64,000 bases of DNA. It comes from a virus (Duplodnaviria > Heunggongvirae > Uroviricota > Caudoviricetes). Both the position numbers and the translations under genes were made by a program. The DNA lies in the IMG/VR virus record IMGVR_UViG_3300044451_000174, positions 10,722-74,721 of that record, one strand, 5' to 3'. Under the pieces are notes generated by a model, which had not been told where the DNA came from, did not search any database, and was given only the letters and a program-made list of their open reading frames with translations. Below, in pieces: positions 13,539-58,155 of the stretch (position 1 is its first letter; each line of letters opens with the position of its first letter).

Positions 13539-13567
13539 GTGGCACCTCGGTCAAATTGACTCCTCGG

Positions 13568-41100: not shown

Positions 41101-43204
41101 ATTCGGTGCCGGCCAAGCCGAGGGCGAGGGCATTATGTTAAACCCACGCTACATTCAAATGGCTGCAAATGTGATGAAAGGTCTGGCCGATATGCTTCCG
41201 GCCATCGGAACCATGATTGACACTCTCGGCAGTGGAATTCAGAAAATCCTGAAAAGCAGCAAAATGCGGATGAAGATGGACGCAATCGAAACGTTCGCGA
41301 CATGGTTCGCGAACGTAGCCCGCTTGCTGACCGAAGGTATGGTGATTCCGATCAAGACGCAGTTCCCGACCGTGGACGAAGTTCAGGACATGGGCGGAAG
41401 ACTTGAAGGAATGACGCAGATCGTTGCCAAATTGCCGAAGTTCATGGAGGATCTGTACTCCAAGATTAAAGAAGGTTTGGCACTGTTAGATCAAAACAAG
41501 ATCGAGGGCAACGAGGTAACACGATTTACGATATGGTTCTATAACGTTGCCTCGATGTTGAACTTCGGTATTGTGATGCCGATCACGACCGGATTCCCGC
41601 CACAGAAAGAAGCGGACGACGCTATCGCCAAGCTCGACAAGATGACAGAGATCGTATCAAAGTTGCCGTCAATCGTTCAGAGCTTGAGCGAGGCGACGGC
41701 CGGCGCTCGCGAGATGATGAAGAGTTCGGGCATTTGGGGCGCGTACCGCGACATGGACATGTTCATGTGGGAAGCGGGCTTCATCATCCGTCGCGGCGTG
41801 ATGGAGCCGATGCAGACATGGCCGAAAGACAGCGAGATGACCGACGCCGTTGCCCGCATCACCAAGATGGACGAAATGTTCAAGACGATGGCTCAGGCTA
41901 TGGAAAGCATGGCCGCGTCAGCTAAAGCTATGGCTTCTGTTGATCTAAGTCAGTCTATGAACATGGGGAGTTTGGGCAACCCTGAAAATGGCAACTTAGC
42001 CGAGTTCGTGAGTGCGTTCGCGGAACAGAACGCCGAGTCGATGGGCATGAACGATACTAATTCTTTGGTTGATGTGATGGGTCAACAATCTCCACAAATC
42101 ACATCGATGCAAAGTGCTTTGCGAATTGTCGAGAACTACACCCACGACATCAAGGATCTGTTCGAGCGGTCGTCCAGTGTCATCGGTGACATCCAGAAGA
42201 CCAGCGAGTACATGTCGATGTTCGGTGATTTGGACTTCTACGAGAACCAGATCTCCGAGAAGATCGCGCAGAGCAAGCAGTTCGTGCCGACCGTCCAGAG
42301 GATTGCAGAGAACATCGGTAAAGGCTTCGACTTTGCCGGCGGCAAGGCGTTGCTCGAAACCATCGCCGGACAGAAAGTCCGCATGGATGAAATGGCGGCG
42401 GGTCTGAAGGAAACAGAAGACTACACCAAGAAATTGGCGGAAATCTTCACGATGGCGAACAACGCCGTCAACATGATCAAGCAGACCACCAACAACCTGA
42501 CGCAACTCAATGCCATCAAAGACGTTGAGAAAGAAATTACGGCCAAGATCGCGTCGGGCAACAGCTTCATGGTGTCGGTGTTGAAGACGGTCGAGGCGGT
42601 CGCCACCAACTTCGGAACCAACGAAGAGGTCAAGACGACTCTGATGGGTGTGCAGGCCAAGATCAAGGCGGCGGGCGACACGAATCAGGCGTTGACCGAC
42701 TCTTTAAAGTTCATCGAGACGGTTAAACAGTTGCAGAGCAACGTGTTGTCAATCGGCCAAATGGCCAAAGACAAGCCGCTTGGCGGTGGCGTGCCGGGTG
42801 CCGGCGCTCCTGTCAGCATCCCGGCCGCTAAGACCGGATTGAGTACGCCTGAGCCGGTACAGACCGCTTCGACAACGGGCGCGGCCAACTTGGACGTTGA
42901 GAAGACGATCATGAGAGATCAGGCGACTTCTCAGCCGCCGGCCGGTGGCAACAAGAACGCGGTCGATTTCAGCAACTTGCAGAAGGCGATTGAAGAGAAC
43001 AAGATGACCAACGACGAGATCCTCAGCGTGCTTCAGGCCATGTTGCGGCTGATGACGCCGCGTTCTGGAAGCAACACGGCACCGGGCGGGGACACGAATA
43101 CATATTCGCGTCCCGACAAGCCGGCTGCTTACTACCGCGCACCCGTTGGCGACTTCAACAGTTCCGCAGGTAAGGGTGCCACCAACATGGTAAGGACCAG
43201 ATAA
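35132..43204 (+). CDS. tail tape measure protein (TMP), 2690 aa, with internal tandem repeats and multiple transmembrane hairpins
   Basis: Giant ORF directly upstream of the baseplate genes. It has alpha-helical low-complexity regions, a Gly14 run, 252-bp repeats that encode paired transmembrane helices, and 273-bp repeats. Confidence 0.7.
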   Translation: MADPQLHVVVDAIGRNVNMNIDPNQWDELKSSITAGMKSVVGEVASVISQKTSSQCKSIEAALNEMSSSFAEEISGLKRVMNELGQKIDNIGKGTGTPTLGGDVSGSLGVIQTNTQAVSDYVTGEFKTAFAGQASDIRAMKDMASTPGKFFTHDQETHRLLGDLKAAIEACCPGSSIVDKTPSVAPSPTERAAPSAAPSGGGGGGGGGGGGGGPSPMDRARAFEAAMNAATTSNEGMNDSLTRGRRAYRQHREDMMATDDALEGFIGHVADLQEAFFVFSKDMSFLKDTFLGTFKSMFKEAVHEEVKFIKETRAAINETQGLTAETRGLQDAMTDIGKTAKTTGVGRSEFQASYLKALKSGIKDQKIAMAVTTAQLNTEKQLGLEAGELTEEFIKWNNQYNMSTMQIAEMGRGMRDIARYTGLTGKELANAVKQGDNFVEVLRNAAMLSASAAKNVMEIAANAQKMGVTKQIEPLIKAMASTNNLFREASSETRAFLFQAAAQVGRTGDLMKGTILKTKGGIKDMEKGMEMMLKKFGVQSVEAIDNLSDEAKMKLNLQLKAAYGLELGELQQSLKALKESSKTLADRLDDIRKKQQGNLTLEEKLALKEEERRLKTSKSFEMLTSLDEAAKGAKDMNAALSKFGERRKDFEGDLKAMGKSWGSNAGAARDAINEALKGVNESLKASGKSELSIDSSEIEKALKDPAAFRELSAKLTKAEQEAATAQKAALDPMSKIEQGVRELNDTMRNFTSSFLSSYMNLTGVLGVLAPLLGMMAAQQALSIARWRADKDFGVMGVLKKGLGKIFGYGGKKKGGAGDVAPGAAAGSGVDAGKGVEALAKDGLGGVSHVEDDTVAGLLRQLLHCLCSPKANGIENDEFKNIGKKNKANAAQIEQGAVAKAEKKAGGAAAKEKSKASAGGDDTKSILDKIEKLKGDGPRIAKAAGIIAALTIGIVLLGAVLIKLANMLFSKLKLDIKTVIETAAIIGVIMGAAGLIGTALYYAKPHLDKLADAEKDINAMVKNMWKGAKALAKLSGPLLVFAAELAIFGKIVLGALGLSPGRLLLIAGTWIALALGIAGIAEAIVRSGPMYAQLPVATKMMHTLHKELWAAVGAFGLVTLPLIAFAAIMALFGYVVIDKFGLTPGRMFAIAATWLILAVAVGAIGYALTASLPGWATMGAGLSAVWSIYPMLWSAVAAFALVSLPLIAFAGLLALFGYVVIDKFGLSPGRMFAIAATWLILAVAVGAIGYALAASLPGWVTMGAGLSVIWALMPVLLNAVAAFALVSLPIIAFAALLAGFGYIVIDQLGLTPGRMFQIAATWLILAVAVGAIGYALTASLPGWVTMGVGLGVIWSLLPLLFMAVAAFALVSLPIVAFAAILAAFGTIVIDELGLTPSRMFDIAATWLVLAIGIGAISYALIEATPGWSMLGIAYPFLLYAYGLMWLGVGAFALVSLPILALAEIIAEFGDTLDELGLTPERMKQIGETFVTLSETIGELCMSMLGATAKLAVLGVLSIFSVLMMSLAMLGVGAFAVLAIPILALGSAISNFGRTIIDDMGLTPERMQAIQDSFTSLTDTIRSLSWKMISATASLSLLGVLLIFSTLASTFIWMGALAFLVMMGPFQFLAYMLSKFAESVDIEGVKKAGEICEAIAKTISTIPPVIKSLTDELLPLMEPRWWGLVGPSKMEKALKVTTGFFSKNFAAILSFISYGIIDPIFGIGPGAAGVKLNPRDIQTAANVMKGLADMLPAIPPVIDALNGPIADLSKKSWFGYGSNKLEKTLNKLKDGFHSSFAAILNFISYGIIDPIFGIGAGAFGTKLNPRDVQTAGKIMSGLAEMLPAIPPVIDALNGPIADLSKKSWFGYGSNKLEKTLNKLKDGFHSSFAAILNFISYGIIDPIFGIGAGAFGTKLNPRDVQTAGKIMKGLAEMLPAIPPVIDALNGPIADLSSKGWFSGKNKLQKTLAKLQQGFQQNFTAILSFISHGIIGPIFGAGQAEGEGIMLNPRYIQMAANVMKGLADMLPAIGTMIDTLGSGIQKILKSSKMRMKMDAIETFATWFANVARLLTEGMVIPIKTQFPTVDEVQDMGGRLEGMTQIVAKLPKFMEDLYSKIKEGLALLDQNKIEGNEVTRFTIWFYNVASMLNFGIVMPITTGFPPQKEADDAIAKLDKMTEIVSKLPSIVQSLSEATAGAREMMKSSGIWGAYRDMDMFMWEAGFIIRRGVMEPMQTWPKDSEMTDAVARITKMDEMFKTMAQAMESMAASAKAMASVDLSQSMNMGSLGNPENGNLAEFVSAFAEQNAESMGMNDTNSLVDVMGQQSPQITSMQSALRIVENYTHDIKDLFERSSSVIGDIQKTSEYMSMFGDLDFYENQISEKIAQSKQFVPTVQRIAENIGKGFDFAGGKALLETIAGQKVRMDEMAAGLKETEDYTKKLAEIFTMANNAVNMIKQTTNNLTQLNAIKDVEKEITAKIASGNSFMVSVLKTVEAVATNFGTNEEVKTTLMGVQAKIKAAGDTNQALTDSLKFIETVKQLQSNVLSIGQMAKDKPLGGGVPGAGAPVSIPAAKTGLSTPEPVQTASTTGAANLDVEKTIMRDQATSQPPAGGNKNAVDFSNLQKAIEENKMTNDEILSVLQAMLRLMTPRSGSNTAPGGDTNTYSRPDKPAAYYRAPVGDFNSSAGKGATNMVRTR
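38450..39960 (+). repeat. about six tandem 252-bp (84-aa) repeats inside the TMP gene encoding paired transmembrane helices
   Basis: Near-identical stretches such as ccgggccgcatgttcgccattgcagcgacgtggttgatcctcgccgtcgcggtcggagccatcgggtacgct recur at 252-bp spacing. The peptide repeat is FALVSLPLIAFA...GLTPGRMF..IAATWLILAVAVGAIGYAL. Confidence 0.7.
40230..41050 (+). repeat. three tandem 273-bp (91-aa) near-identical repeats inside the TMP gene, AT-richer than their surroundings
   Basis: Antisense ORFs at 40336, 40609 and 40882 are spaced exactly 273 bp apart. The peptide repeat ILNFISYGIIDPIFGIGAGAFGTKLNPRDVQTAGKIM..LPAIPPVIDALNGPIADLSKKSWFGYGSNKLEKTLNKLKDGFHSSFAA occurs three times. Confidence 0.75.
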
Positions 43205-43749: not shown

Positions 43750-44076
43750 GTGACAGTGGCCAACTTCTTTGAAGAAACGAACATAAACCCCAGAACTTAC
43801 TTCACTGCCGCGAGTCGGTATTCCGACTCGACCATCTGCTATTACACGGACATGAAACGCCTGTCACTTACGACGTACAAGCGTGGCGTTTCTGCCGTGA
43901 CCCCCAACGACAAATTCATGGTAATCGGGAAGGGCCAAGAGTACCGTCCCGATCTGGTCAGTAGTCGCGTCTACGGTCTGCCCGATTTCTGGTGGCGGAT
44001 CATGGAGGCTAACGGGATCTACGACATTTACGACTTCAAGGCCGGCGTCAACATCCGAATCCCCTCAATGATCTAA
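43750..44076 (+). CDS. LysM-like tail protein (P2 gpX / T4 gp53-like)
   Basis: PDLVSSRVYGLPDFWWRIMEANGIYDIYDFKAGVNIRIP fits a LysM pattern. Confidence 0.55.
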   Translation: MTVANFFEETNINPRTYFTAASRYSDSTICYYTDMKRLSLTTYKRGVSAVTPNDKFMVIGKGQEYRPDLVSSRVYGLPDFWWRIMEANGIYDIYDFKAGVNIRIPSMI

Positions 44077-44085
44077 GGAAAACGT

Positions 44086-45519
44086 ATGTCTTGTAACGCA
44101 ATTTGTTTGCCAGAATATCAATGTGGTGATCTACAAAAAATAAAGCCCAACACTGGCGCGGTTTACGCACCATTTGTGACAATGACATTGGGTGGAACTA
44201 TCACCGTTGGTAACAAATCATTCCCAGGAGAACCCAACACAGCCTGCATCAAATCTTTTGAATTTGGCGGCTCGACTGGTGCTGGCTGTACTGTAGAAAT
44301 AATTGATGAATCTGGTGGTAGTTTTGTGAGATATTTCAATGCAGTTAACAAAAATTTATGTCAAGCCGCCGATGATCACAATATGGAAATTAACTTTGGA
44401 TGGATCTCCAGATCGACAGATGGAAATTTAACCAAAATCGGAATTCCTGAAGGGCCGATATTTTTCATACCCGGAAAAATAGAAAGCGTGTACGAAGGAG
44501 GTGTTATAAAATACACGTTGAATGGAACCGATATGTTAACCCACATGGCAGAAAGTCGCGTGCAAGTACCTGTTGGAACAGAATCAAATAAAGTTAGATT
44601 GATGCCGGCGGTAAGAAAAATGGCGTCAAGAAATTGTCCACCACTCAATAACATCAGATATTTAAGACGAAATGGACCAAATCTAACTGAATGGAGATTC
44701 AAAAATAGTGATGGCGGGCCAGAGGGTCCAATGGGAGTTTGGCAGGGAGATCAACAAAATCCTATTTCGGCCATGAGAAAATTTTTCAATTCCTTGACGA
44801 CAGACCGTAATAAAGGATTTTATGCTATTTGGAACTCTGGGTCATCAGTTCCAGAACTTTGGTTCATGGAAGATTCGCGACCATATTGTGACGAAACGTC
44901 TAATGGATTTTTTTGTGCTGGAACTTACATTGTAAACGGAGGAGATTGCAGCCCTGTAATTAGCTTTAACCCAAAAGCAGAATGGCAATATACTGCTGAT
45001 CTTAATTCGGGTGGTAACTTGGGAGGTGCCACATCTGCTAAGAATATAGAACAACGACCGCCAATAGAACAAAGACGAAGCGGGAATTGTAAGGACATAA
45101 CCACTACTCAACGTGGTGCTGGTACTACAACACAATTCGCCGCACCACAAAACGACATCAATTGGCGGTCGCCAGATCAAATTACTCCAAAAATGCAAAA
45201 AGCTATGGCGGAACACGAAACGGCGGCACACTACAAAGAGCTGCAAGCGCCTATGGAAGCCGAGTTAAAAATACATGGCGACACAAGCTTTGTCCATCAA
45301 TCGCGATGGGCCGATGCTGTTGTTTCGATAATCGTAATAAATCCATTTCAAATTTTTTCAGGTGGTTCATACCACGAATGGCTCGCCGGGCCAATGTGTA
45401 ACCCAATTTTTTCAGACAAAGAATGGATGATAAAAGGTGTTAACCATCAAATTTCTGATGGAGCTTATACTACGACCTTAAAAGTACAATGTATGAATGT
45501 AAACAAGACTGAACAATAA
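44086..45519 (+). CDS. putative baseplate hub protein (gpD/gp27-like position), encoded in an AT-rich segment
   Basis: 477-aa ORF between the LysM protein and the gpV-like spike. GC content is visibly lower than in its neighbours. Confidence 0.4.
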   Translation: MSCNAICLPEYQCGDLQKIKPNTGAVYAPFVTMTLGGTITVGNKSFPGEPNTACIKSFEFGGSTGAGCTVEIIDESGGSFVRYFNAVNKNLCQAADDHNMEINFGWISRSTDGNLTKIGIPEGPIFFIPGKIESVYEGGVIKYTLNGTDMLTHMAESRVQVPVGTESNKVRLMPAVRKMASRNCPPLNNIRYLRRNGPNLTEWRFKNSDGGPEGPMGVWQGDQQNPISAMRKFFNSLTTDRNKGFYAIWNSGSSVPELWFMEDSRPYCDETSNGFFCAGTYIVNGGDCSPVISFNPKAEWQYTADLNSGGNLGGATSAKNIEQRPPIEQRRSGNCKDITTTQRGAGTTTQFAAPQNDINWRSPDQITPKMQKAMAEHETAAHYKELQAPMEAELKIHGDTSFVHQSRWADAVVSIIVINPFQIFSGGSYHEWLAGPMCNPIFSDKEWMIKGVNHQISDGAYTTTLKVQCMNVNKTEQ

Positions 45520-47633
45520 TGACAAATTTATCAGACCAAATACGACAACTAGAAACAGAACTAAAAAAAGTTAAAGCTGTTCTTTCTTCAAGTCAATACG
45601 AAATGGCTAAAGTCGCAACTACGACTTTGAACGACCGTACCCACATTGTTTCTCAATCAGAACAAATGTTTGGCATGTACACTGCCCTGTGTGTTGAAAC
45701 CAAAGATGTTTGGAAACAGAACCGCATCCGTTTTTATTGCCCCTTGTTCCAGTCTCCCGACAGCCCGATGAAAAGTCTGCCGTGGGCGTGGCCGATCTCG
45801 CCTATGGGCGGGTTTGATGATTCCGGCTGTTCGTGGGTGCCACCAGCCGGCTCGACCGTCTGTTTGATTTTCGAGGGCGGCGCGAGAAACGCACCTTTCT
45901 ACATTGGCACAACGTGGCATCGTAACCGAGGACCAGAAGGGGCCAATGTATGGACCATTGACATCGCGGAGTACCAGAAGGTGTGGTCGGGTCACCGCAA
46001 GGGCTACCTGTGTGGACCCAACGACGAGAGCCAGTGTTTGCCGCCGTGGAACACCGAATCTTCAAACGGGTTCGACCTTAATAGCATCGTTGACTTCGAT
46101 GCGAACCCGGAAGCCCAAAAGATGTTGACCTACCCGCACATTTACGGGTTCAAGACGCCAGAAAAACACATGCTCAAAATGGTTGACGGCGATGCGTCGT
46201 GTGACCGCCGGTGGAAAAGACTTGAGATACTCTCGTCTTGCGGCAACTGGCTGATCTTCAAAGACGATCACCTGCACTACGCCGGCCAATACGCACACCC
46301 GACCACGGGCGGCGTTGTCAAAACGGGTGACGTGACGTGCATCGAAGGTGCCGCACCCGGCATCGACATTACCAGGGCAATCGGCCTCGGCGATTTCTTG
46401 CCGGACTTAAACCCCGTTGACTCCGGGGCCGATTTCGGCAGTGCGGACGAAGGGTCAGTGGAAGACGACACGCCGAAAGAGGGAGCTAAAATTTCAAACC
46501 CCGCTTGCAGTGCAAAAATTGTTGGCGGTCATCCCGACACACCTTACTTCCCGTCGTGGAAACCGACCAAATATCAAAAACAACAGATAGGCGCGAACCC
46601 TTTTTTCAAACACGAAAACGAGTGCCGACCGTATCGCGGGCCGGGCAACAACCGTAACAACACCGCCATGTTGCCCCAGAGCGGCATCCAGATGATGTCT
46701 ATCAGCGGCCACACATGGGTCATGGACGACTCGGTCGAAGAACCGACTGGCGATTGCGTGTGGGAACGATCACTACGACCGTTCGACTATGGGTGCAACA
46801 ACATTTTCAACGGTTACATGGGACTGTTCAGCAGTTCGGGTCACAAATTCATCATGAGTGACATCGAGCAAGACGAGCCGAACAAAAGGGGCGAAGACAA
46901 TTACATCCGTCTAGAGTCGCAGGCAGGCAACATCATCGAACTCAACGATATGGAGAAGGAGATCGGGATCGCCGGTTTCCGTCGCGGCATCAGCATGCGT
47001 TCGACCAGCAAACACTTGTTCATGATGATCGATGAGGACAACGAGCAAGACTTGATCCCGCGAAGCGATGGTAACCAACCGGTCAACAAGGCGAAGAAAG
47101 CGTTCATCAAGATCCGGTCGGGTTACGGTATCGAGTTCAAGATCGAGGACACCAACTCGCAGGAGAATACGGTTGCCCAGTCCCTGCAAATGTTCTGTCC
47201 GCAGAAGGACAATACCGAGCGTGGCCCGCACATCATGAGGTTCCAAGAGGCTCCGAGTGGTCCGGGTCAAATCATGCTTCGTGCCGGCGGCGACTACATT
47301 ACAATAAGTTACGACGATCACGTCGAGATGGTGGGCGACAAGGAAAAGAATCCAAGTAACAAGATCGGCATCATTTCCAAGAACAAGGTCGTGTCAACGG
47401 AACAGGTTTACATCAACCTCGCCCGCATGCACGTCTTCTTGGCTAAGGAACAGATCCTGTTGTTGGCCGGTCAGGATTGTCCGTCCGAGAACGGCGAGAT
47501 GGCTCCGTGTCCGGCACAGATCCTCGTGTACCACGAGGGCAAGATCAAGATCAGTGACCGCGTCATCGGAAGCTGTTCCCCGAAGGCTCCGTGTGCGTCG
47601 ATCTTCATGATGTCGCCGTTCGTTTCGTGCTAA
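45519..47633 (+). CDS. baseplate central spike protein (P2 gpV / T4 gp5 / VgrG-like), 704 aa
   Basis: WAWPISPMGGFDDSGCSWVPPAGSTVCLIFEGGARNAPFYIGTTW matches the gpV OB-fold signature WA.v..p.aG...G....P..G..V.v.F..GD...P...G. Confidence 0.7.
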   Translation: MTNLSDQIRQLETELKKVKAVLSSSQYEMAKVATTTLNDRTHIVSQSEQMFGMYTALCVETKDVWKQNRIRFYCPLFQSPDSPMKSLPWAWPISPMGGFDDSGCSWVPPAGSTVCLIFEGGARNAPFYIGTTWHRNRGPEGANVWTIDIAEYQKVWSGHRKGYLCGPNDESQCLPPWNTESSNGFDLNSIVDFDANPEAQKMLTYPHIYGFKTPEKHMLKMVDGDASCDRRWKRLEILSSCGNWLIFKDDHLHYAGQYAHPTTGGVVKTGDVTCIEGAAPGIDITRAIGLGDFLPDLNPVDSGADFGSADEGSVEDDTPKEGAKISNPACSAKIVGGHPDTPYFPSWKPTKYQKQQIGANPFFKHENECRPYRGPGNNRNNTAMLPQSGIQMMSISGHTWVMDDSVEEPTGDCVWERSLRPFDYGCNNIFNGYMGLFSSSGHKFIMSDIEQDEPNKRGEDNYIRLESQAGNIIELNDMEKEIGIAGFRRGISMRSTSKHLFMMIDEDNEQDLIPRSDGNQPVNKAKKAFIKIRSGYGIEFKIEDTNSQENTVAQSLQMFCPQKDNTERGPHIMRFQEAPSGPGQIMLRAGGDYITISYDDHVEMVGDKEKNPSNKIGIISKNKVVSTEQVYINLARMHVFLAKEQILLLAGQDCPSENGEMAPCPAQILVYHEGKIKISDRVIGSCSPKAPCASIFMMSPFVSC

Positions 47634-49641: not shown

Positions 49642-52600
49642 ATGGCAGAGAAAACAATCTATGAGGTGCCGAGTGTTACGGATACGGTGGTCATTCCTTT
49701 CTTGACCCCCGACGCCGACCAATGCTTGCTCCAGAACCCCTACATGGTCAACAACCTGACCATTTACTACATCGAACGCGACTTCTCAGGCGGCAACGTC
49801 ACGCAATTTGACGTTGAAACCCGGAACCAAGACGCGGAGCGGGCGGCGACCGAAGCACAGAACGCGGCGTGCCTTGACCCGACTCAGGAGAACATTCTTG
49901 AGGCGCGAAAACTACGCGCCCAGGCCGACTCCATGAGGGTTTCGCGACCCGTGTATTACAACGACGCCGTCCCCGTTGCGGTGATCGGCAACTCGTCTTA
50001 TCCCGCTTGGCTCTCGACCGACACACCCAACGCTCTCATCGAAAACGTACCGCTTGACGAGGAAGGTAACACCGTATACGGCCACTTCCAATACGTTTGG
50101 AACCCGGTGGGTATGCGAGAGGGCAACTACATCGCGTGCTGGACGTGGACGCCCCTCGCGGCCGGGGAAACGCTTTCGCAAAACCTTTCCTTCTCGTTGA
50201 TGGGCAACAACGCCATCACCACGAGCATCCCGACCCACGCCACGCCGCCGGAAAAGTACCAAACTCTGCTGGACACATACCTCCCAGAGATGTACAAATC
50301 CACGCTCTCCGAAGACGACGTGACCCCGTCCGTTCTGACCAGATTCAACAAATCGGTCGGCCAGGGGTTCACGGTGTTGGAGAATCTCGCCAACCAGATC
50401 TTGGACATCATGGACGCCAACTCGACTGACGAGGCGTTCTTGGGCCTTCTGGGGCGGATGTTCGGGCTGAAGCTGAGGAGCGAAGACCCGACCCGTTGGC
50501 GGAAGCAGATCAAGTTGGCGGTGCCGCTTTACAAGATGAAGGGAACTCGCGCCGGGCTGGAGATGGCGTTCGATTTGGCCGGCATGAGGATGACGAGCTT
50601 GGTTCGCGGCTGGCAGATCATTTCGCCGTACACATGGGTGGAAACCTTCAAAGCGGCCGGCGGCGAAATGGAGTTCGTGCTGTCCCGTGTCGCACAACCA
50701 ATTGATTCAGACAACTTTGAAGTGTCCGTCAGAAAGGCGGGCAACTCGTACTACACGGACTACCTGCCATCAGACGTGTCGATCAACACATCGGACGGCG
50801 TCAGCACACTAACGATTGAGAACAACATCTCGCTCGAAAACGGCGACATCCTTCGAGTGCTGTACCAGTACGCGGCGATCCCGAACCCGACGCAACAGGA
50901 CATCGAGGACTACATTCGTTTGTTGCCGTTGACCGATCAGCGGGACGAAACGGTTCAGGACTACCCGCCGAAAAACTGGAACGTTCGACTGCTCGAAGAG
51001 AACGACCCGTTGTTTTCGATCTTGATTCCCAACAAGCACCCGTACCACGACTTCTTGGTGTTCGGTAAGATCAGGACCGAGTTCCCGTACAGCGAAAACG
51101 TCTATAACATGGACGAATACAACGGCTCGATTAGGGACAGTCTCGAACCGTGCGACATGGACAAGGACTTCGTTGACCCGTGCAGCCAGTGCTTGGGCAG
51201 CAAGTACATCATCGACATTGAAGTTGACCGCCTTTGCGACGACCGGGTGAACGAGGCCAAAGACATCCTGAAGGAGTTCGTCCCGTTTCACGCCCTGCCC
51301 CAGACCATCAACTTCAGCGGCTCGATGGAGGACTTCGTTCAGCCGCCCGTCGAGACGATTGAGTGCCTGATTTACTATCGCGGGAGCGAGACAGTAATCG
51401 CCGGCAGCGATCAAATGGTCTTCAACCGCGCGATGATTCCGAGCGGCATGCCGCTCGACCAAATTCTGAGAAACACCCTCGCTACGAGTACGCTCGTAGC
51501 GAGCGGAACCGCCACAGCCTACAACAGACAGATCATGTTGTTCTCGCCGGACGTTCCGATCAGCAACACCGGCCTGAGTACCGACCCGACCGAAACGGTG
51601 CTAGAAATCTACGGCCCGCACCCGCACGCCGGTAACTACCAAGTCACCAACGCGGTCGGACACGCGGTCGAAGTTTACGGCCCAATCTCGCCGACATCGC
51701 CATTGACGGAGCCGATCAATCAGTCGGCCTTCTCGTTCAGCCTGTCGAACATCATTTACGAAAACTCCGACACCTCCATTGTGACCGACAATTTCTACAA
51801 GTTGAAGGACGCGACTTGGGACTTGGCAGAACTGGGCGTCAAGAGCCAGTGGGACGTTGACAACGGGTACGCTACGACGGCCTGGACGATCAAGATGACG
51901 GCGTACAGTGCCACGCCGTACACGATCCAAGACATAAAGCCCGAAGGCGAGATCGTGATCGCTCAAGACCCTTCCCTGCCAAACGTGAACGCGACGGGTG
52001 TGGCCTATTCGATCATCCGCCCGGACGCGAGCGTGGCACACACAGGCACCTTGAATTTGTCGGTTGAGCTTCGCGGACTGGTAACTGTCACGGACGGGGT
52101 GCTGACCGACGTTCGCGGGGTAATGATCCAGCCGCTCGCGGGGCAATACTTTTTGTACTACAACGATACCGGCGACCAGTACGTCGTCAGTGAATTGGTG
52201 GACGGCGAGACACACCAGTTTTACATCAACGGCTGGTCGGGCGGTTCGGTGGGCGGAAAGAGTATCGCTTTGTATGATCGGCTGATCGATACGCGGTACG
52301 GCTTACTTACTTATCAGGGTATCGGCCTGAACACGGTGATCAACTACGAATCGTCGTTGGGCATCTCGAACGGCCAAAACCCGGTACTGGTTCCGCTGGA
52401 AGACAGCAAGTTCAAAGAGAACTTCATCGTCGTGATCAATGACCCAGTCAACGGGGCGGATGAAGAGACTTTTGCGATTGCCGACATCGACGGGACTACG
52501 ATCACCCTGGACGGTGACATTCACTACTGGACGACTTTGGGTAACGGGGGGACGAGCGTGCCGTTCGAGATTTACAACTACGAAACTCTTCCGGTGACTG

Positions 52601-52797
52601 TGGCGGGCGTGCCGTTCCAGCGGCTCGACCGGCGGAACTCGGAAGTGATCACCTCCGTCACGGAGACGATGTCGCCGATGGCGATGAGCATGGCAGCCGC
52701 CCCAGAGCCGGGGTTCTCTGACTTTGTGAAACAAGAAGAGAAAATCAACTTCCGCATTGATTACGCGGACGGAACAGTCGAAGAGGGGAGCCTATGA
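49642..52797 (+). CDS. tail protein I-like baseplate protein with long C-terminal extension (1051 aa)
   Basis: LGLLGRMFGLKLRSEDPTRWRKQIKLAVPLYKMKGTRAGLEMAFDLAG matches the gpI family motif around RRGTraGLe. Follows the J gene. Confidence 0.55.
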   Translation: MAEKTIYEVPSVTDTVVIPFLTPDADQCLLQNPYMVNNLTIYYIERDFSGGNVTQFDVETRNQDAERAATEAQNAACLDPTQENILEARKLRAQADSMRVSRPVYYNDAVPVAVIGNSSYPAWLSTDTPNALIENVPLDEEGNTVYGHFQYVWNPVGMREGNYIACWTWTPLAAGETLSQNLSFSLMGNNAITTSIPTHATPPEKYQTLLDTYLPEMYKSTLSEDDVTPSVLTRFNKSVGQGFTVLENLANQILDIMDANSTDEAFLGLLGRMFGLKLRSEDPTRWRKQIKLAVPLYKMKGTRAGLEMAFDLAGMRMTSLVRGWQIISPYTWVETFKAAGGEMEFVLSRVAQPIDSDNFEVSVRKAGNSYYTDYLPSDVSINTSDGVSTLTIENNISLENGDILRVLYQYAAIPNPTQQDIEDYIRLLPLTDQRDETVQDYPPKNWNVRLLEENDPLFSILIPNKHPYHDFLVFGKIRTEFPYSENVYNMDEYNGSIRDSLEPCDMDKDFVDPCSQCLGSKYIIDIEVDRLCDDRVNEAKDILKEFVPFHALPQTINFSGSMEDFVQPPVETIECLIYYRGSETVIAGSDQMVFNRAMIPSGMPLDQILRNTLATSTLVASGTATAYNRQIMLFSPDVPISNTGLSTDPTETVLEIYGPHPHAGNYQVTNAVGHAVEVYGPISPTSPLTEPINQSAFSFSLSNIIYENSDTSIVTDNFYKLKDATWDLAELGVKSQWDVDNGYATTAWTIKMTAYSATPYTIQDIKPEGEIVIAQDPSLPNVNATGVAYSIIRPDASVAHTGTLNLSVELRGLVTVTDGVLTDVRGVMIQPLAGQYFLYYNDTGDQYVVSELVDGETHQFYINGWSGGSVGGKSIALYDRLIDTRYGLLTYQGIGLNTVINYESSLGISNGQNPVLVPLEDSKFKENFIVVINDPVNGADEETFAIADIDGTTITLDGDIHYWTTLGNGGTSVPFEIYNYETLPVTVAGVPFQRLDRRNSEVITSVTETMSPMAMSMAAAPEPGFSDFVKQEEKINFRIDYADGTVEEGSL

Positions 52798-53270
52798 AAA
52801 CCGAAGACCAAGTGCAATGTATCGGTTGGGTCGAAGCCGTCATCGAATACAAAGACGGCCGCAAAGACACTTTGCGGTTCAACAACAGCGTCATGAGGCG
52901 GGGACGGGCGGCTCTGGCCGCAGCCCTGAGCAACTCCCTTAGTGACGGGTTCAATTTCTACGTCAGCCGAATGATTTTCGGCGACGGCGGCACGTCCGGG
53001 GGCGTTCCGAAGTTCGTTGACACGAACAGGAACGGCCTTTACGGTTTGACGCGGGCGAGTAAGCCCGTCGTGGCGAGCGTGGACCCGACGACCCCTAGCA
53101 AAGCCGTGTTTACCAGCGTGTTGACGTTTAACGACGCCAACGGGTACGCCCTGAACGAAATGGCGTTGGTAATGAACAGCGGCGACTTGTACAGTCTGGC
53201 GACGTTCCCAGACCTCAACAAGACTGACGCCATGCAGATCACATGGTCTTGGTCGGTTAATTTTGTCTAA
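52794..53270 (+). CDS. hypothetical tail-associated protein (158 aa)
   Basis: ORF that overlaps the upstream stop. Confidence 0.45.
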   Translation: MKTEDQVQCIGWVEAVIEYKDGRKDTLRFNNSVMRRGRAALAAALSNSLSDGFNFYVSRMIFGDGGTSGGVPKFVDTNRNGLYGLTRASKPVVASVDPTTPSKAVFTSVLTFNDANGYALNEMALVMNSGDLYSLATFPDLNKTDAMQITWSWSVNFV

Positions 53271-53300
53271 AATAGCTTTTGAAAATACTATAATACCTGC

Positions 53301-54320
53301 ATGAAGAATTTATACCCGCAATTGACTACCCGTCAGCATGAGATATTCATAGGAAGTATGCTTGGCGATGGCTGTCTTAGCCGTCAACCTGTTAACTGGA
53401 ATTGGCTGATTCAGCAGAGCTTTGCCGATCATAAAAACTTTCCAAAAGAAAGCTACATGCAGTTTTTTTTAGATGAGCTAGGAGGCTGGTCCAGATGTGC
53501 AAAAATTGTTATGAAGTCTCATCGAGCCAAAATTATCGACGGCAAGATCGGTCGAGTGCAGTGTGAACCATATCCGACTTGGAGATATGAGTCTTGCAAT
53601 CATCTGATTTGGACGGAAATGGGCAAGAAGTGGTATGCCCCTCAGTTGGTGAACGGCAGAATCAGGAAGGTCATTCCTAACGATCTCAAACTGACTCCGC
53701 TATCGATGGCGATATGGTACATGGATGACGGGGTCAATCAAGCTAGAGACGCCCAAGCCAAACTATGCACCAATGGTTTTACCGAAGAAGAGGTTGTTTT
53801 CCTGGCGGAAGTAATGAAACGTGACTTGTCGATCAAGGCTGTCAAGTCGAGAGTCAAAAAAGACCGCAGTCAGTTTTTACTTCGTGTCAACCGTGAAGCG
53901 TATTTTGAATTCATTGACATTATAAGGCCAGAGATCAAGTGGGACTGCTTCGGTTACAAAACGGACACCTCCGGGTACGTCAAGAAAGACAACAAGGGAG
54001 CCAACCACGGAAAGTCTAAATTAAACGACGAGAAATCGCAGGAGATTTTTCGGTTGAGGCAGATAGGTCGTTCTCGTAAAGAAGTCGCGGCCATATTTGG
54101 TGTGACCGAAGCGTGTGTGACACGCATCGCTTCTGGGCAAGGATGGAAACATCTGGGAAACCCGATGGTGCGACAACACAAAAAAATGACCGCAGAAGAC
54201 AGAACGCAAGCATTAAGGCTTCTGGCAGAAGGTAAGGATCAAGAAGAGGTCGCAAGCATTATCGGCACATCACAGTCGAGCATCAGTAGATTGTTAAACA
54301 AAAAAACGTTCGCAAAATAG
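53301..54320 (+). CDS. LAGLIDADG homing endonuclease with C-terminal helix-turn-helix DNA-binding domain
   Basis: Two LAGLIDADG motifs, IFIGSMLGDGCLS and LSMAIWYMDDGVN. The C-terminal EIFRLRQIGRSRKEVAAIFGVTEACVTRIASG is helix-turn-helix-like. A TATAAT lies at 53289-53294. The region is low in GC. Confidence 0.75.
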   Translation: MKNLYPQLTTRQHEIFIGSMLGDGCLSRQPVNWNWLIQQSFADHKNFPKESYMQFFLDELGGWSRCAKIVMKSHRAKIIDGKIGRVQCEPYPTWRYESCNHLIWTEMGKKWYAPQLVNGRIRKVIPNDLKLTPLSMAIWYMDDGVNQARDAQAKLCTNGFTEEEVVFLAEVMKRDLSIKAVKSRVKKDRSQFLLRVNREAYFEFIDIIRPEIKWDCFGYKTDTSGYVKKDNKGANHGKSKLNDEKSQEIFRLRQIGRSRKEVAAIFGVTEACVTRIASGQGWKHLGNPMVRQHKKMTAEDRTQALRLLAEGKDQEEVASIIGTSQSSISRLLNKKTFAK

Positions 54321-54331
54321 GTGAACTTCGT

Positions 54332-54529
54332 ATGACATGCAAGAAAGAGAATGAAAATAATTTGCCGGTCAACGCGGATGTCATATACATCCCCAGTGTG
54401 ATCGGGCAAATAAACAAAATTACATTCCCCAGTATCATTGTCTGTGAAGTAAACGTGCCTAGTGTGATCGTAATGGACGAGCTTGACATCCCAAGTATCA
54501 TTACGGTCGATTGGGCTACAGGAGCATAA
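54332..54529 (+). CDS. small protein made of about 11-residue IPSxI repeats (65 aa)
   Basis: YIPSVIGQINKIT, FPSIIVCEVNV, PSVIVMDELDI, PSIITVDW. The same repeat type occurs at the C-terminus of the gene beginning at 63011. Confidence 0.4.
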   Translation: MTCKKENENNLPVNADVIYIPSVIGQINKITFPSIIVCEVNVPSVIVMDELDIPSIITVDWATGA

Positions 54530-54930
54530 TGAACGATTGGTTGAAGCGCAGCTATGCAAAGCAGAAAAGGCAAGCCGACAGACGTACTCTCGAAGGTATC
54601 GATGAGATCGTCAACAAATGGAAAAAAGCCGAAGACAAAAAAGAGTGGGGCGACAAGCTCGCGGTGATTTTGACGATCATGGCTCGCAACGTTATTGAGT
54701 TTGCGAAGCCGGACCTTCCTCTGGAAGAAAAGATCGCAAATCATCGCGAAATAATGAAAAGAGCGGCTAGTTCGCTCCCCTGCATAGACACGACCAGACA
54801 CCGGGCTTTCACTTACCTGATGACCAAAATGTTGTGCGTGTTGCGTCAGAACACGATGACGAGAGAAGAACTACTGGAAGCACACAAGGAGTATCGTGAG
54901 TACCTTGCAAGTAAGCACCCTAGAGCTTGA
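54529..54930 (+). CDS. hypothetical protein (133 aa)
   Basis: Start at MNDWLKRS with TAATG overlap. The longer ORF begins at 54511. Confidence 0.4.
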   Translation: MNDWLKRSYAKQKRQADRRTLEGIDEIVNKWKKAEDKKEWGDKLAVILTIMARNVIEFAKPDLPLEEKIANHREIMKRAASSLPCIDTTRHRAFTYLMTKMLCVLRQNTMTREELLEAHKEYREYLASKHPRA

Positions 54931-55174
54931 AGAAAACGGCAAACCGAAGCGGTATCTGGTCTTCGACAACGAAGCCTTCGACTACGAACTGAGTGAATCG
55001 GACCTCTCCCGCGCGATCATGTACTGTGGCGACGACCCACAGGCCAAGAAGACGCTGCACGGCGAGATCCAAAAGCACTTCCTCGACTGTCTCGAAGAGT
55101 TCCTCGGTTTCCCCGTGACACTGAGTGAGCTTGTGGCTGCGATCCGCGAAGGCAAACTGGAGAAGAAGCAATGA
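54896..55174 (+). CDS. hypothetical protein (92 aa)
   Basis: ORF. Confidence 0.4.
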   Translation: MSTLQVSTLELEENGKPKRYLVFDNEAFDYELSESDLSRAIMYCGDDPQAKKTLHGEIQKHFLDCLEEFLGFPVTLSELVAAIREGKLEKKQ

Positions 55175-55683
55175 ATTTCGTAGAAGAAACCGATCTGCGG
55201 TTCGCGTTGATGCCATCGACAATTGAGAACGCCGGCATGGGGTGTTTCGCCGCCGTGGATCTGAAGAAGGGCGACTACATCGAGGTGATCGGCGTCTACG
55301 TCAAGAAAGGCGGCATCGCCGACAAGTGTACCGCCTACGCGACCAGATACAAGTTCAACGGTCACGACAACCAAGAGGCCAACATCGTGCCGATGGGCTA
55401 CGGCGGGATGATAAATCACACCCCGGACACCGCGAAACAGAATGTCAAACTCGAATTCGCTCGCGGGCTGGCACGGAGAAGCAACGACGCGGGACAAGTG
55501 ATTTACAGGTTCACGAGGGACATCCCGGCCGGCGAAGAACTTCTTGGGTACTACGGGGATCACAAGGAGGCAGAGCTTCAGTGGATGAACAAAGGGGCGA
55601 GCTACCACGACCGCGAGGGCGGGGCGTGGAAAGAGTTCATCGAACTCGATTATTACAACCTCGGTCTGCTCGCCAAAATCTGA
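55171..55683 (+). CDS. SET-domain protein (putative lysine methyltransferase)
   Basis: ENAGMGCFAAVDLKKGDYIEVIGVYV matches the GxG N-SET motif. GMINHTPDTAKQN matches NHS..PN. FTRDIPAGEELLGYYGD matches RDI.aGEELt.dY. Confidence 0.65.
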   Translation: MNFVEETDLRFALMPSTIENAGMGCFAAVDLKKGDYIEVIGVYVKKGGIADKCTAYATRYKFNGHDNQEANIVPMGYGGMINHTPDTAKQNVKLEFARGLARRSNDAGQVIYRFTRDIPAGEELLGYYGDHKEAELQWMNKGASYHDREGGAWKEFIELDYYNLGLLAKI

Positions 55684-55720
55684 TCTGAACCGTAGATAAA
55701 GTAACCCGCCGAGGAGGACC

Positions 55721-56497
55721 GTGCCACAGATTGACCTGATTCCAGTACCGCAGTATCAAGCTCTCCAGCCGTACCACGTCGATTTCGACAACCTGCCGCT
55801 GAAGGCGTTGATCACGCGGATGCAGTTGATCAACAGTGCCGTTGACATCAACTCCGACATTCTCCGACAAGCGGTCGGAAGTCAGGGTACGGTCAGCGCA
55901 CGCCTCGGCCAGAGCTTGAACGACGACGGCAGCTTGAGGGTTTCGGCGGTTGACGGCACGCTCCACAACATCGGCGCTCACGCCGATGGGACTTACGAAT
56001 CCGTGGCATACGTCCGCATGAAGCTGGATGAGCGTGAGAAATTGGCGTTGATCGCTGACGGGGCGACCAACATGACGCTAGAATTCAACACGCCGTCCGT
56101 CATTACCAGTTTTGACACCGGGCCGGTGGAATTCATCCCGTCTGACGGGGTGACGTGGAACACGGTCGCGCCGAACAAGGTTCAGGCCAACCTGACGTTC
56201 CCGATCTCTTCGGCACACAAACATTACTACGGGATCACCCCGCAGTACGACGGAACGCCCGACTTCCAGCACTATAAGATCGGCTACCCGAACTACATCG
56301 CAGGCAGTCTGCGTGTGGCGATCAACGGTGTCAGGATTTTTGACGACGGCGATGTGTACGTCCCAGGCTCTACGGTGTCCGAAGCGTGGACACTTCAGGG
56401 GTTCACCGGGGACGAAACGACCGGCAAGTTTGTACTCATGACGCCGCTGACTCTGGACGATGTGATCCGGGTCGATTTCGACGTTGCCCTCACCTGA
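55721..56497 (+). CDS. hypothetical protein (258 aa)
   Basis: ORF. Confidence 0.5.
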   Translation: MPQIDLIPVPQYQALQPYHVDFDNLPLKALITRMQLINSAVDINSDILRQAVGSQGTVSARLGQSLNDDGSLRVSAVDGTLHNIGAHADGTYESVAYVRMKLDEREKLALIADGATNMTLEFNTPSVITSFDTGPVEFIPSDGVTWNTVAPNKVQANLTFPISSAHKHYYGITPQYDGTPDFQHYKIGYPNYIAGSLRVAINGVRIFDDGDVYVPGSTVSEAWTLQGFTGDETTGKFVLMTPLTLDDVIRVDFDVALT

Positions 56498-56510
56498 TGC
56501 GAGCTAGTGG

Positions 56511-57059
56511 ATGAAAAAAGACACGTCACCTGTAGTCGTCAACAAAATGGCTTACAGGCCGGTGCCTATGGACCTCGGATTCATTGTCCTGTGTTTTGAC
56601 GCCGACCCGTACAAGCCCCTCACTACCCTGAGCAGCATAGATCGCGCGTACCCTGGAGCCAAAACCGAAATGGTTTCCCCTCCAGATTTCAAGCACATTC
56701 ACAAGTCAGCAATTACGGGGAAGGGTTCACTGACCTCGCTGATCAACGCCGGTATGTCGAAGCCGCCGGCCGAATGGAACGTAATAGTGATGGCAGGGGT
56801 TCGAGTTAAAGAACAACTCGACAAAAAGTATTCGCCCTTCATGGAAAGCCGTCTGGACATCTTCTTCCCGCTCATCTTTGGTTTCCACAACTTCCTCGAC
56901 GCTCCGATGAACGGCCTGACCATTCACCGGGACACCTTCAAAGAGGTCGGCAAATTCGCCGACGACAACCCGCTCGAAATCTGCAAGATGATGTGGTTCT
57001 TGGAAGCCCACGGCAAGAACTGCAAGTTCAAAGCCGTCGCCGGTTGTCGGATGTGTTGA
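56511..57059 (+). CDS. hypothetical protein (182 aa)
   Basis: ORF. Confidence 0.5.
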   Translation: MKKDTSPVVVNKMAYRPVPMDLGFIVLCFDADPYKPLTTLSSIDRAYPGAKTEMVSPPDFKHIHKSAITGKGSLTSLINAGMSKPPAEWNVIVMAGVRVKEQLDKKYSPFMESRLDIFFPLIFGFHNFLDAPMNGLTIHRDTFKEVGKFADDNPLEICKMMWFLEAHGKNCKFKAVAGCRMC

Positions 57060-57072
57060 GCATAAATAGCTC

Positions 57073-57531
57073 ATGCTCACGTTCACCCAGTGGGTCGAAA
57101 CGACCCGTGTCACGATCTATACCAGCCCCCAGTCGAAAGGCGCTATGGTGGACGACACGTTCGCCGACGAGCCTGTTCAAATGCTGGACATCGACAGCAT
57201 CATAAACTACGAGCGGGCCTCCAAAATGGACCTCCCGGCCAGCCGGGAAAACATGCAGAAGATCCTTGCTGGCATCAAGGCCGGCGAGAAGATGCCGCCG
57301 GTTTACGTCCGCGAAGTGAAACTGAAGGGGAAGTCAAATCCGAGGTGGGACGGGAACAAAATGCTGTCGGTCGGAGGGGTTCCGAACTCGCGTTTCAAAT
57401 ATCAGATCATTGACGGGCATCACAGGTACTGGGCGTACAAAAAGGCGGGCGTCAAAACAATACCCGCCATCGTCGTCTCGCCAGAAGACATCCAGAAGAA
57501 GAGGCTCTGGACGCCCGAAGACGAATACTAG
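57073..57531 (+). CDS. ParB-like nuclease domain protein
   Basis: YQIIDGHHRYWAYKKAGVKTIPAIVV is the ParB/Srx DGHHR signature. Confidence 0.7.
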   Translation: MLTFTQWVETTRVTIYTSPQSKGAMVDDTFADEPVQMLDIDSIINYERASKMDLPASRENMQKILAGIKAGEKMPPVYVREVKLKGKSNPRWDGNKMLSVGGVPNSRFKYQIIDGHHRYWAYKKAGVKTIPAIVVSPEDIQKKRLWTPEDEY

Positions 57532-58148
57532 GACGCCATCCACGGCGTGTAGGCGATTTGCGCCCCGTCCCGCGTAATGCAGGGGCCGGAAGAGAACGCC
57601 AGGAAACCGCCATTCCAAGTGTACCATTCGAGCTTGTCGCCCGGCTGCACCACCGACATGAACTTGACCATTCTCTCTTCTTGCTTGAGTTGATCGACCG
57701 TCAGCGGGTTCTCACGGGGGCGTCCGCAAGTGCGTTGGCCGCTGTTGAGGTTGTCGGCCAAGATCTTCCAGAAGTCCTCGACTTTGTCACTGAGGAACTC
57801 GATGATGTTCTCGGCCTTGCCGCCGTTGTACTCGGTGTAGAAGTATTGGAACCGCCCCGTGGCGATGTTGTCTTCTTTCTTCTTCCGAGCAGCCGCCTCG
57901 ATCTTTTCCATTGCTTGTTGTTGTTCTTCGAGCAAGACCGGAATTTGATCTTCGGTGATCTGGACCGCTTTCCAGTGTTTCGTTTCGTGCGTGTAGTAGG
58001 AGCCGACCGCCATATTGTCGAACTGGCGGTGGTTGACGGTACACGTTTTCTTGTTGGAAACGTTCATCACCTCGGCCGCAACCTTCGGCGTCCCTTCGTT
58101 GACGATGCCGAGATACTGCCACACGCCGAAGTAGGGTTTGTCTGACAC
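57528..58148 (-). CDS. hypothetical protein (206 aa)
   Basis: ORF. Confidence 0.5.
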   Translation of the reverse strand: MSDKPYFGVWQYLGIVNEGTPKVAAEVMNVSNKKTCTVNHRQFDNMAVGSYYTHETKHWKAVQITEDQIPVLLEEQQQAMEKIEAAARKKKEDNIATGRFQYFYTEYNGGKAENIIEFLSDKVEDFWKILADNLNSGQRTCGRPRENPLTVDQLKQEERMVKFMSVVQPGDKLEWYTWNGGFLAFSSGPCITRDGAQIAYTPWMAS

Positions 58149-58155
58149 TGCTGCC

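Follow-up and report, generated by a model that had tools for sequence, protein, structure and literature searches.

LAGLIDADG homing endonucleases cut DNA site-specifically at long targets (~18-22 bp) and leave 4-nt 3' overhangs. In T4-like phages and in ICP1, free-standing homing endonuclease genes (HEGs; Seg, Mob) lie at boundaries of genetic exchange (Barth et al., 2023; PMC10448857). The enzymes described there are mostly of the GIY-YIG, HNH or T5orf172 type, and LAGLIDADG members are often intein-borne (PMC10448857). For huge gut "Jug" phages, the portion of the report considered here lists 17 LAGLIDADG endonucleases, 9 of them inside other genes, with stand-alone genes among them (PMC12880540). 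Here, we describe a LAGLIDADG endonuclease gene in the tail module of an uncultivated phage, located in a stretch of 64,000 nt (IMG/VR record IMGVR_UViG_3300044451_000174, positions 10,722 to 74,721; hereafter the window, in whose coordinates positions are given unless a relative is named). We put the probability at roughly 0.78 that an insertion of 1,068 bp in this window is a free-standing LAGLIDADG homing cassette, which is seated in the terminal codons of the tail gene p158 and would home into genomes that lack the homing endonuclease (HE).

The window was compared with about 19 distinct related lineages supplied by IMG/VR and assembly look-ups (L numbers below), which all share the gene order gpI-like gene, p158 (158 aa), a variable gap, p258 (258 aa), a 182-aa gene and onward. 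Three close relatives without the endonuclease (HE-less), L034, L031 and L032, were retrieved with the 133-aa protein encoded downstream of the endonuclease as query; they are independent assemblies from three different sequencing projects and are collinear with the window apart from the cassette. In blastn alignments, window positions 50839-53252 correspond to L034 3-2416 and window positions 54321-54960 to L034 2420-3059, and the insertion therefore comprises 53253-54320. The alignments with L031 and L032 break at the same point, 53252. Nucleotide identity to the window is 83% to the left and 92% to the right of the insertion for L034, and 78% and 81% for L031. An earlier note on this DNA had proposed that insert-less relatives would define the insertion site, which they did. 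A p158 search of metagenome_contigs returned only 5 loci, none of them a new close relative.

The p158 gene of the HE-less alleles has the ending ...W S W S V N F V stop, at a junction that reads TGGTCTTGG-AGCGTGAACTTCGTATGA (...ACATGGTCTTGG AGC GTG AAC TTC GTA TGA... in L034, L031 and L032), and the ATG of the next open reading frame (ORF) overlaps the stop codon (GTATGA). In the window, the left junction reads ...ACATGGTCTTGG TCG GTT AAT TTT GTC TAA, followed by 30 nt and the endonuclease ORF ending ...AAA TAG; directly after this TAG, the right junction continues with GTG AAC TTC GTA TGA CATGC.... The cassette hence opens with its own version of the p158 terminus, in which 8 of the 18 nt differ from the HE-less alleles, all of them synonymously, next to 21 upstream nt that are identical to L034. 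The original 3' end survives beyond the endonuclease stop as a vestige that equals the last 15 nt of p158 in all three HE-less relatives, and the start codon of the following ORF (ATG at 54332) is still inside its GTATGA. The same layout recurs in L029, whose endonuclease is 68% identical to that of the window, with a related recoded terminus TCAGTCAATTTCGTCTAA, and both L029 and L022 keep an equivalent vestige downstream of the endonuclease or its remnant. Judged from these alleles, the insertion is not simply intergenic; it interrupts p158 within its final six codons, for which the cassette brings a recoded substitute. Since the interrupted codons and the stop are re-supplied, the host gene p158 stays intact. 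This gene, which adjoins the gpI-like gene (49642-52797) in all relatives, matches PHROG 5417, has a weak N-terminal match to Phage_tail_fib (E-value 3.4e-4) and shows a ratio of non-synonymous to synonymous substitution rates (dN/dS) of 0.02-0.06 against the relatives.

The 339-aa protein matches the Pfam family PF03161 (LAGLIDADG_2) over residues 14-200 (E-value 4.7e-21; 75.9 bits, cut-off 25) and PHROG 11023 (E-value 2.1e-17). It also matches I-SceI in sequence (E-value 2e-6), with both LAGLIDADG motifs aligned. In an alignment of 21 homologues, G18, L21, G22, D23 and G24 as well as L131, T132, P133, L134, W139, D143 and G144 are invariant or nearly so, and the motifs have proven intact rather than degenerate. 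In the AlphaFold (AF2) model derived from this alignment (mean per-residue confidence, pLDDT, 85.4), residues 10-221 form a double alpha-beta-beta core, which a short linker joins to two three-helix bundles; the core has the pseudo-dimeric alpha-beta-beta-alpha-beta-beta-alpha fold. In Foldseek searches, the core comes closest to I-SceI (E-value 1.8e-12) and I-WcaI (template modelling score, TM, 0.74), with TM of 0.69-0.74 normalised to the target; the full-length match to WhiA is weaker (E-value 1.9e-6). The earlier note had predicted a double-motif enzyme with one C-terminal helix-turn-helix (HTH), which was correct for the motifs, but the protein has two C-terminal HTHs, recognized by Pfam as HTH_7 (residues 238-273) and HTH_23 (residues 297-333). 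By structure comparison, the pair resembles the bipartite HTH domains of Pax and Tc3. The protein has every sequence and fold feature of an I-SceI-like LAGLIDADG enzyme, and is predicted to cleave DNA. It is also free-standing, as had been suspected, because the ORF has its own start and stop codons and no RNA family is detected around it: p158 stops at 53270, before the endonuclease ATG, and an Rfam scan of 52500-56000 found zero families at E <= 1, on which ground a group I intron around the endonuclease ORF was rejected. Within the insert, 30 nt upstream of the ORF and 0 nt downstream are non-coding. With the exception of one lineage, all HE-bearing lineages have an intact ORF with the full set of motif residues.

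Members of this endonuclease family are distributed sporadically. They occupy the p158-p258 junction in the window and L017 (the same phage, with 1 nt differing in 20,700), L018, L019/20, L021, L026-28, L029 and L030, and are absent from L001-L010, L031/32, L034, L035, L037 and L038. The endonucleases of L018, L019/20, L021 and L026-28 are 34-39% identical to the window protein. Presence is polymorphic at this site, which is empty in L034, L031 and L032 and occupied in the window/L017, L029 and L030, and occupation destroys the predicted target, which in the window is split by the 1,068-bp insert and recoded in its left half. A third state is found in L022-L024 (~70% nucleotide identity to the window), where only the last 56 codons remain at the site, fused to the CTATAATA region. 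The L022 remnant is 59% identical to window residues 284-339 (E-value 5e-17) and represents the degeneration or loss stage of a homing cycle. A second family member (HE2; 270 aa, 32% identical, one HTH) lies in L022-L025 between a SET-domain gene and p258. In L022, it is inserted into the first codons of p258, the mirror image of the window insertion: upstream of it, GTGCCACAGATTGA persists as a vestige of the original p258 start, together with its Shine-Dalgarno sequence, and p258 now begins at a recoded TTGCCGGCCATAGA within the endonuclease 3' end. At the HE2 site, the window represents the empty allele.

Within the close subclade, the histories of endonuclease and flank are discordant, as far as the compared sequences tell. 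When the window is compared with L029, p158 is 99% identical at the amino acid level over its last 76 codons, with 0.94 synonymous substitutions per synonymous site (dS), and the endonucleases are 68% identical with saturated dS. By their C-termini, the endonucleases of L029 and L030 group with the L022 remnant (81-86%), and that of the window is at 59-62% from all three; the p158 tree, by contrast, groups the window with L029, L031 and L034 and leaves L022 outside. Against L034, the window has a dS of 1.17 for p158, on the left side of the insertion, and of 0.13-0.26 for the repeat ORF and the 133-aa ORF on its right side, which indicates that a recombination breakpoint is located at the insertion site. 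Composition is in line with mobility as well, since the endonuclease gene is 0.02-0.10 lower in GC than the DNA around it in all six lineages examined.

The proposed homing cassette accordingly consists of the recoded codons and stop, a 30-nt spacer with CTATAATA, and a monomeric I-SceI-like enzyme with two HTHs. Upon co-infection, the enzyme would cleave the uninterrupted junction ...ACATGGTCTTGG/AGCGTGAACTTCGTATGA... of HE-less genomes, or a position close to it, and repair of the break from the HE-bearing genome would copy in the cassette together with some flanking DNA. The carrier genome would be protected because its site is split by the insert and the left half is recoded. The remainder of the low-GC DNA at this locus, i.e., an ORF with IPSxI repeats and a gp55-like sigma gene, is older resident DNA of the phage clade. 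The features are listed in Table 1.

Table 1. Position of the cassette, its parts, neighbouring resident genes and comparison alleles (window coordinates unless a relative is named).
Feature	Position	Strand	Basis or remark
p158, tail/baseplate-module gene, 158 aa	52794..53270	+	interrupted at its 3' end
Endonuclease cassette, 1,068 bp	53253..54320	+	absent from HE-less L034, L031, L032
Recoded p158 terminus, last five codons and stop (S V N F V stop)	53253..53270	+	left end of cassette
CTATAATA, lone -10-like element	53288..53295	+	6 nt upstream of endonuclease ATG
LAGLIDADG endonuclease gene, 339 aa	53301..54320	+	Pfam, I-SceI match, conservation, AF2 fold
Motif 1, IGSMLGDG (D23)	I17-G24, nt 53349-53372	+	aligns with I-SceI motif
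Motif 2, LTPLSMAIWYMDDG, including WYMDDG (D143)	L131-G144, nt 53691-53732	+	aligns with I-SceI motif
HTH 1	residues 237-278, nt 54009-54134	+	
HTH 2	residues 298-338, nt 54192-54314	+	
Vestige of original p158 3' end, GTG AAC TTC GTA TGA	54321..54335	+	beyond endonuclease stop
IPSxI-repeat ORF, 65 aa	54332..54529	+	resident gene, outside insertion
133-aa gp55-like, region-2-only sigma homologue (candidate)	54529..54930	+	resident gene, low GC3
HE-less junction stretch	L034 2380-2450		CCATGCAGATCACATGGTCTTGGAGCGTGAACTTCGTATGACAAGCAAGAAAG
p158-p258 gap, L006, L008, L009			about 20 bp
p158-p258 gap, L002-L005, L010			0.4-0.5 kb
p158-p258 gap, L007			1.1 kb
p158-p258 gap, window			2.45 kb

Expression of the endonuclease might start from the -10-like element in the spacer. 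The perfect TATAAT at 53289-53294 that the earlier note had pointed out is present, and the + strand of the window has no second TATAAT; the extended form CTATAATA has a single occurrence in the 64 kb, where 0.04 would be expected. It also precedes the endonuclease gene in L029, L021 and the HE2 of L022, and L018 and L019 have CTATATAAA(C/T) in the upstream region. In distant lineages, a GGAGG Shine-Dalgarno sequence lies between motif and ATG. The window and L029 have the ATG only 6 nt past the motif, with no Shine-Dalgarno sequence before it in the window. Because of this short distance, a transcript from CTATAATA would start at or next to the AUG and would possibly be a leaderless mRNA. Folding of 53222-53330 gave no significant structure (z = -0.9), and a hairpin that would hide the start codon of the endonuclease in the RNA was rejected; TATAAATA, a late promoter of the T4 type, was likewise rejected as a motif in general use by the phage (5 one-mismatch matches in the window against 5.04 expected). 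Another short motif, WAWWTAGCT, occurs at 9429, 26908, 44957, 53269 and 57063, i.e., in 5 copies, each of them on the + strand, where 0.77 would be expected; 5 copies are attained in 1 of 100 shuffles. One copy lies directly after the p158 stop, at the left edge of the cassette spacer, and another 2 nt before a ParB_N-domain ORF.

Several observations weigh against a mobile cassette. Among distant lineages, the divergence of the endonucleases (34-53%) roughly tracks that of the flanks (48-65%), a parallelism that would fit long vertical residence with repeated loss equally well. The HE-less alleles could also be deletions between the imperfect 18-bp repeats that flank the insert (12 of 18 positions identical). 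Polymorphism of HE-bearing and HE-less alleles within one population was not found, all 7 of 7 contigs with the identical protein carrying the insert, and exact scans of metagenome_contigs and viral_contigs for the degenerate junction pattern CACATGGTCKTGGWSSGTKAAYTTYGTMTRA gave zero matches, so that allele frequencies are not countable. Moreover, every relative used is a metagenomic assembly. Finally, a sigma-70 scan does not call CTATAATA as a canonical promoter because a -35 element is lacking, and the missing -35 and Shine-Dalgarno sequences make expression of the endonuclease uncertain.

One alternative is that the endonuclease is an old, vertically inherited and now immobile resident, whose patchiness would be due to deletion only and whose low GC content would reflect relaxed selection and weak expression. 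The same junction is occupied in lineages with genomic GC of 0.30-0.56, and the GC of the endonuclease gene tracks that of each host, which argues for long residence; the parallel identities of distant endonucleases and flanks and the deletion remnant in L022 are in line with this as well. An immobile resident fits poorly, however, with the discordant phylogenies of endonuclease and flank in the close subclade, with the sharp shift in dS at the insertion relative to L034, with a second family member at a different, mirror-image site in L022, or with an ORF that has kept all motif residues in every lineage but one. We therefore regard it as unlikely, albeit as the strongest competitor of the homing cassette.

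Still less probable is a domesticated LAGLIDADG-HTH protein, WhiA-like or maturase-like, that would have ceased to be a mobile nuclease and would instead regulate the neighbouring sigma and fibre genes. In WhiA, a conserved regulator encoded on bacterial chromosomes, the catalytic acidic residues are missing. Its domain order is that of the window protein, in which a C-terminal HTH comes after a double LAGLIDADG core, and such a role might account for the second HTH, for the full-length structural match to WhiA and for the maintenance of the family at one locus in many divergent lineages with a divergence similar to that of the flanks; one source annotates the 339-aa protein as "predicted transcriptional regulator", and a sigma-factor gene is nearby. 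Unlike WhiA, however, the window protein keeps its acidic residues, has two HTHs, and is patchy and dispensable, being absent from close relatives and decayed in one L022 copy. Across the 21 homologues, both catalytic acidic residues and the glycines of the motifs are conserved, the best structural matches are the active enzymes I-SceI and I-WcaI (E-value about 1e-12), and a recoded terminus with a vestige is the expected trace of a mobile element. In sum, catalytic residues, dispensability, discordant trees and the breakpoint weigh against both the regulator and the immobile resident.

The earlier note also described a sharp drop in GC content across 53271-54930. Sliding windows confirm that composition is not uniform: in windows of 300 bp, GC is 0.57-0.60 at 52800-53250, 0.40-0.48 at 53250-54900 and again 0.54-0.58 by 55000, and the islet 53271-54930 has a GC of 0.455 compared to a mean of 0.558 (standard deviation 0.034) over all 1,660-bp windows of the 64 kb (z = -2.97). 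Of 6,234 such windows, 129 have a GC at or below this value (lowest 2%). The islet had been placed next to the gpI-like gene; it does lie downstream of it, but directly follows p158. The deficit sits mainly at third codon positions (GC3): GC3 is 0.515 in both the endonuclease gene and the repeat ORF and 0.582 in the 133-aa ORF, compared to 0.71-0.78 in flanking genes. The islet is not the GC minimum of the window, as 43901-45950 (minimum 0.386) and 40001-41250 (minimum 0.396) are lower. The former covers the ORF 44086-45519 (477 aa, without family match), whose relatives are only 25-41% identical, and the latter falls inside an ORF of 2,690 aa (35132-43204).

The earlier note had also treated the islet as one unit, in which the ORF with IPSxI repeats looked like a copy of fibre repeats that might have been captured during homing. 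A single horizontally acquired cassette would explain why all three ORFs are low in GC3 (0.52-0.58 against 0.71-0.78), why DNA similarity between the window and L022 stops at 53274 and resumes at 54887, i.e., over the extent of the islet, why the 133-aa protein is only 35% identical to that of L022, compared to 65-78% for flanking proteins, and why the repeat ORF resembles fibre repeats above chance. It is nevertheless highly improbable, and capture during homing is refuted, because the repeat and 133-aa ORFs are present in the same order after p158 in HE-less L034, L031 and L032, the repeat ORF abutting p158, with an equally low GC3 (0.54-0.63, compared to 0.72-0.85 for p158 there), because the insertion ends at 54320/54321, upstream of the repeat ORF, and because HE-less L007 has an IP-repeat ORF in its p158-p258 gap and the repeat ORF has no DNA similarity to the fibre gene. 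The islet genes are not jointly missing from the endonuclease-free relatives in which this was tested (L031, L032, L034). On the aligned alleles, the low-GC islet is composite, and the cassette is its only inserted part.

The repeat ORF contains four [IVF]PS[VI]I units with varying proline codons (CCC, CCC, CCT, CCA), and units of this type also close the fibre-like gene that starts at 63011. The resemblance noted earlier holds at the protein level: the best alignment to the fibre repeats reaches 29.6 bits, compared to 16.6 +/- 2.8 bits for shuffled sequences (0 of 200 reach it), but identity is only 35-48% over 27-46 residues. In line with the lack of DNA-level similarity, the repeat ORF is evidently not a recent copy of the fibre gene. 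It may descend from an old fibre-gene fragment, with an origin that predates the endonuclease insertion. It closes with ITVDWATGA, similar to the EVDWGTPP found behind the IP repeats of the L018 and L021 fibres. The HE-less relatives carry it directly after p158 with 86% (L034) and 50-55% (L031 and L032) amino acid identity, and it evolves fast (dN/dS 0.47 against L034). A search of 5.8 billion proteins returned only 2 matches, the protein itself and the L034 copy, and Pfam has no family for the repeat ORF or the fibre repeats. The sole mismatch between the window and L017 over 20.7 kb, at 54447, falls into this ORF (A/G, non-synonymous, E39G); L034, like L017, has G at the equivalent position. 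From 63011, the fibre-like gene continues into very long tandem arrays of 10-12-residue IP(S/T) repeats, which are found at 16942-18851 in L003, 17689-19177 in L010 and 19711-21020 in L017, with more than 30 near-identical FGPVNIPTLIN units in L003 and L010. No IP(S/T) repeat is covered by Pfam, which gives only a weak PKD match upstream of the arrays.

The 133-aa protein is, with moderate confidence, predicted to be a gp55-like sigma factor that consists of region 2 only. Confidence is no more than moderate because the window protein alone matches zero PHROG or Pfam families. Its family comprises about 43 representative small proteins, and 17 of 44 match PHROG 234 (late sigma transcription factor); the family profile aligns with T4 gp55 (7d7c_F) over nearly the full length (E-value 0.0026). 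The AF2 model (pLDDT 93.6) has the helical fold of sigma region 2, and Foldseek ranks sigmaE region 2 and gp55 highest, each with a probability of 0.99 and TM of 0.65 and 0.53, respectively, normalised to the target, at weak E-values of 0.3-0.4. The gene is under purifying selection (dN/dS 0.07-0.18) and lies in a hypervariable gap of the tail module. Its N-terminal motif (MKNYWLDKK, MKNFWLERK, MNDWLKR) also opens several otherwise unrelated small ORFs of the gap, such as the gap ORF of L002-L005 and L010 (L002 7758) and the repeat ORF at L031 9774 (MSNIWIERKQ). In L007, four consecutive ORFs with this motif are found at 10444-11549, one of which runs into IP repeats ending IMIDWGTPP. These sequences suggest that the 5' end of the sigma gene has been partly duplicated or recombined repeatedly, which would have given rise to chimeric ORFs. 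A separate targeting signal of the MKNYWLDKK type was considered and rejected; it is a motif of the gp55-like sigma family that is reused by neighbouring ORFs. Downstream, a SET-domain protein is encoded in the tail module at 55171-55683 (Pfam SET, E-value 3.6e-7; 69% identical in L022, 88% in L031), and a 92-aa ORF (54896-55174) is conserved together with the SET gene in both.

The neighbourhood as a whole is a contractile-tail baseplate and fibre module with gp25-like, baseplate wedge, gpI-like and PKD-domain proteins. The identical 339-aa endonuclease is found on contigs of up to 475,914 bp, and the phage has a size of ~476 kb. GenBank phages gave zero megablast matches to window positions 51500-57000, and the nearest GenBank record, LR756511.1, is a 595-kb uncultured phage with only ~40% protein identity. 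A second variable spot of the tail module is located at 57060-58155: a ParB_N-domain ORF (57073-57531) and a minus-strand ORF of 206 aa (57528-58148) are present in the window and L031 and missing in L022, L002-L010 and L001, where the 182-aa gene directly adjoins a nucleoside deoxyribosyltransferase-like gene. L009 contains two copies of the 258-aa gene (10499-11374 and 17340-18173) with ~6 kb of other DNA in between. The module of L022, the closest HE-bearing relative, has three further nuclease genes, namely an Endonuclease_7 gene at 106-474, before gp25, a minus-strand LAGLIDADG gene at 10674-11444 beside the nucleoside deoxyribosyltransferase-like gene, and a GIY-YIG gene at 13327-13965 between two PKD-domain genes. 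The window has none of these three and therefore provides empty alleles for their sites.

Taken together, the alleles make up an unusually complete homing cycle for uncultivated huge phages that can be read from sequence alone: empty, occupied, decayed, and re-invaded by a second member. They also imply that an element might occupy the end of an essential structural gene harmlessly by re-supplying recoded codons, and the predicted target of ~30 bp for a natural meganuclease with an additional bipartite HTH module may interest enzyme engineers. A more far-reaching and rather doubtful idea is that a distinct LAGLIDADG sub-family with a paired-type double HTH homes into the ends of structural genes via recoded termini, and that two such elements drag the sigma cassette between phages. 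If so, the window, L029 and the L022 remnant would represent the 3'-end version and the HE2 of L022 the 5'-end version, and the two elements would bracket the repeat ORF, the gp55-like sigma gene, the 92-aa ORF and the SET gene as a nuclease-bounded exchange module.

Among known systems, I-SceI and I-WcaI are likewise single chains with two LAGLIDADG motifs and a catalytic Asp in each. However, their genes lie within group I introns of mitochondria and they lack an accessory DNA-binding domain, whereas the window protein is free-standing in a phage and has ~100 extra C-terminal residues that form two HTHs. With the HEGs of T4-like phages and ICP1, the window gene shares its stand-alone position beside essential structural genes, a nuclease at one end and DNA-binding domains at the other, a sporadic occurrence among relatives and a location exactly at a recombination breakpoint, and the several nuclease genes per module in its relatives are reminiscent of a "HEG island". 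It differs in that the insertion lies inside the terminal codons of the neighbour, which the cassette re-supplies. The "Jug" phages are similar in having huge genomes rich in homing endonucleases, but the portion of that report considered here is a census without insertion site, empty allele or decay series (PMC12880540). LAGLIDADG genes fused into fungal mitochondrial rps3 (Ophiostoma) have also been described (cited as reference 82 in PMC5626475). In these, as in the window, the insertion is within a protein-coding gene and not an intron core; the fungal case is, however, an in-frame fusion in an intron-encoded organelle gene, whereas the window has a separate phage ORF with its own start and an 18-nt duplication. 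In work of Sethuraman and co-workers from 2009, the displaced C-terminal coding segment of rps3 is said to be duplicated, such that the host gene stays functional; if this is right, the logic of the duplicated terminus would match. The kind of element described here is thus already known, since stand-alone LAGLIDADG genes in huge phages and nuclease genes at exchange boundaries have been reported. Less common are the combination of a LAGLIDADG core with a paired-type double HTH, the insertion into terminal codons with a recoded terminus, and the mirror-image pair of elements in one neighbourhood.

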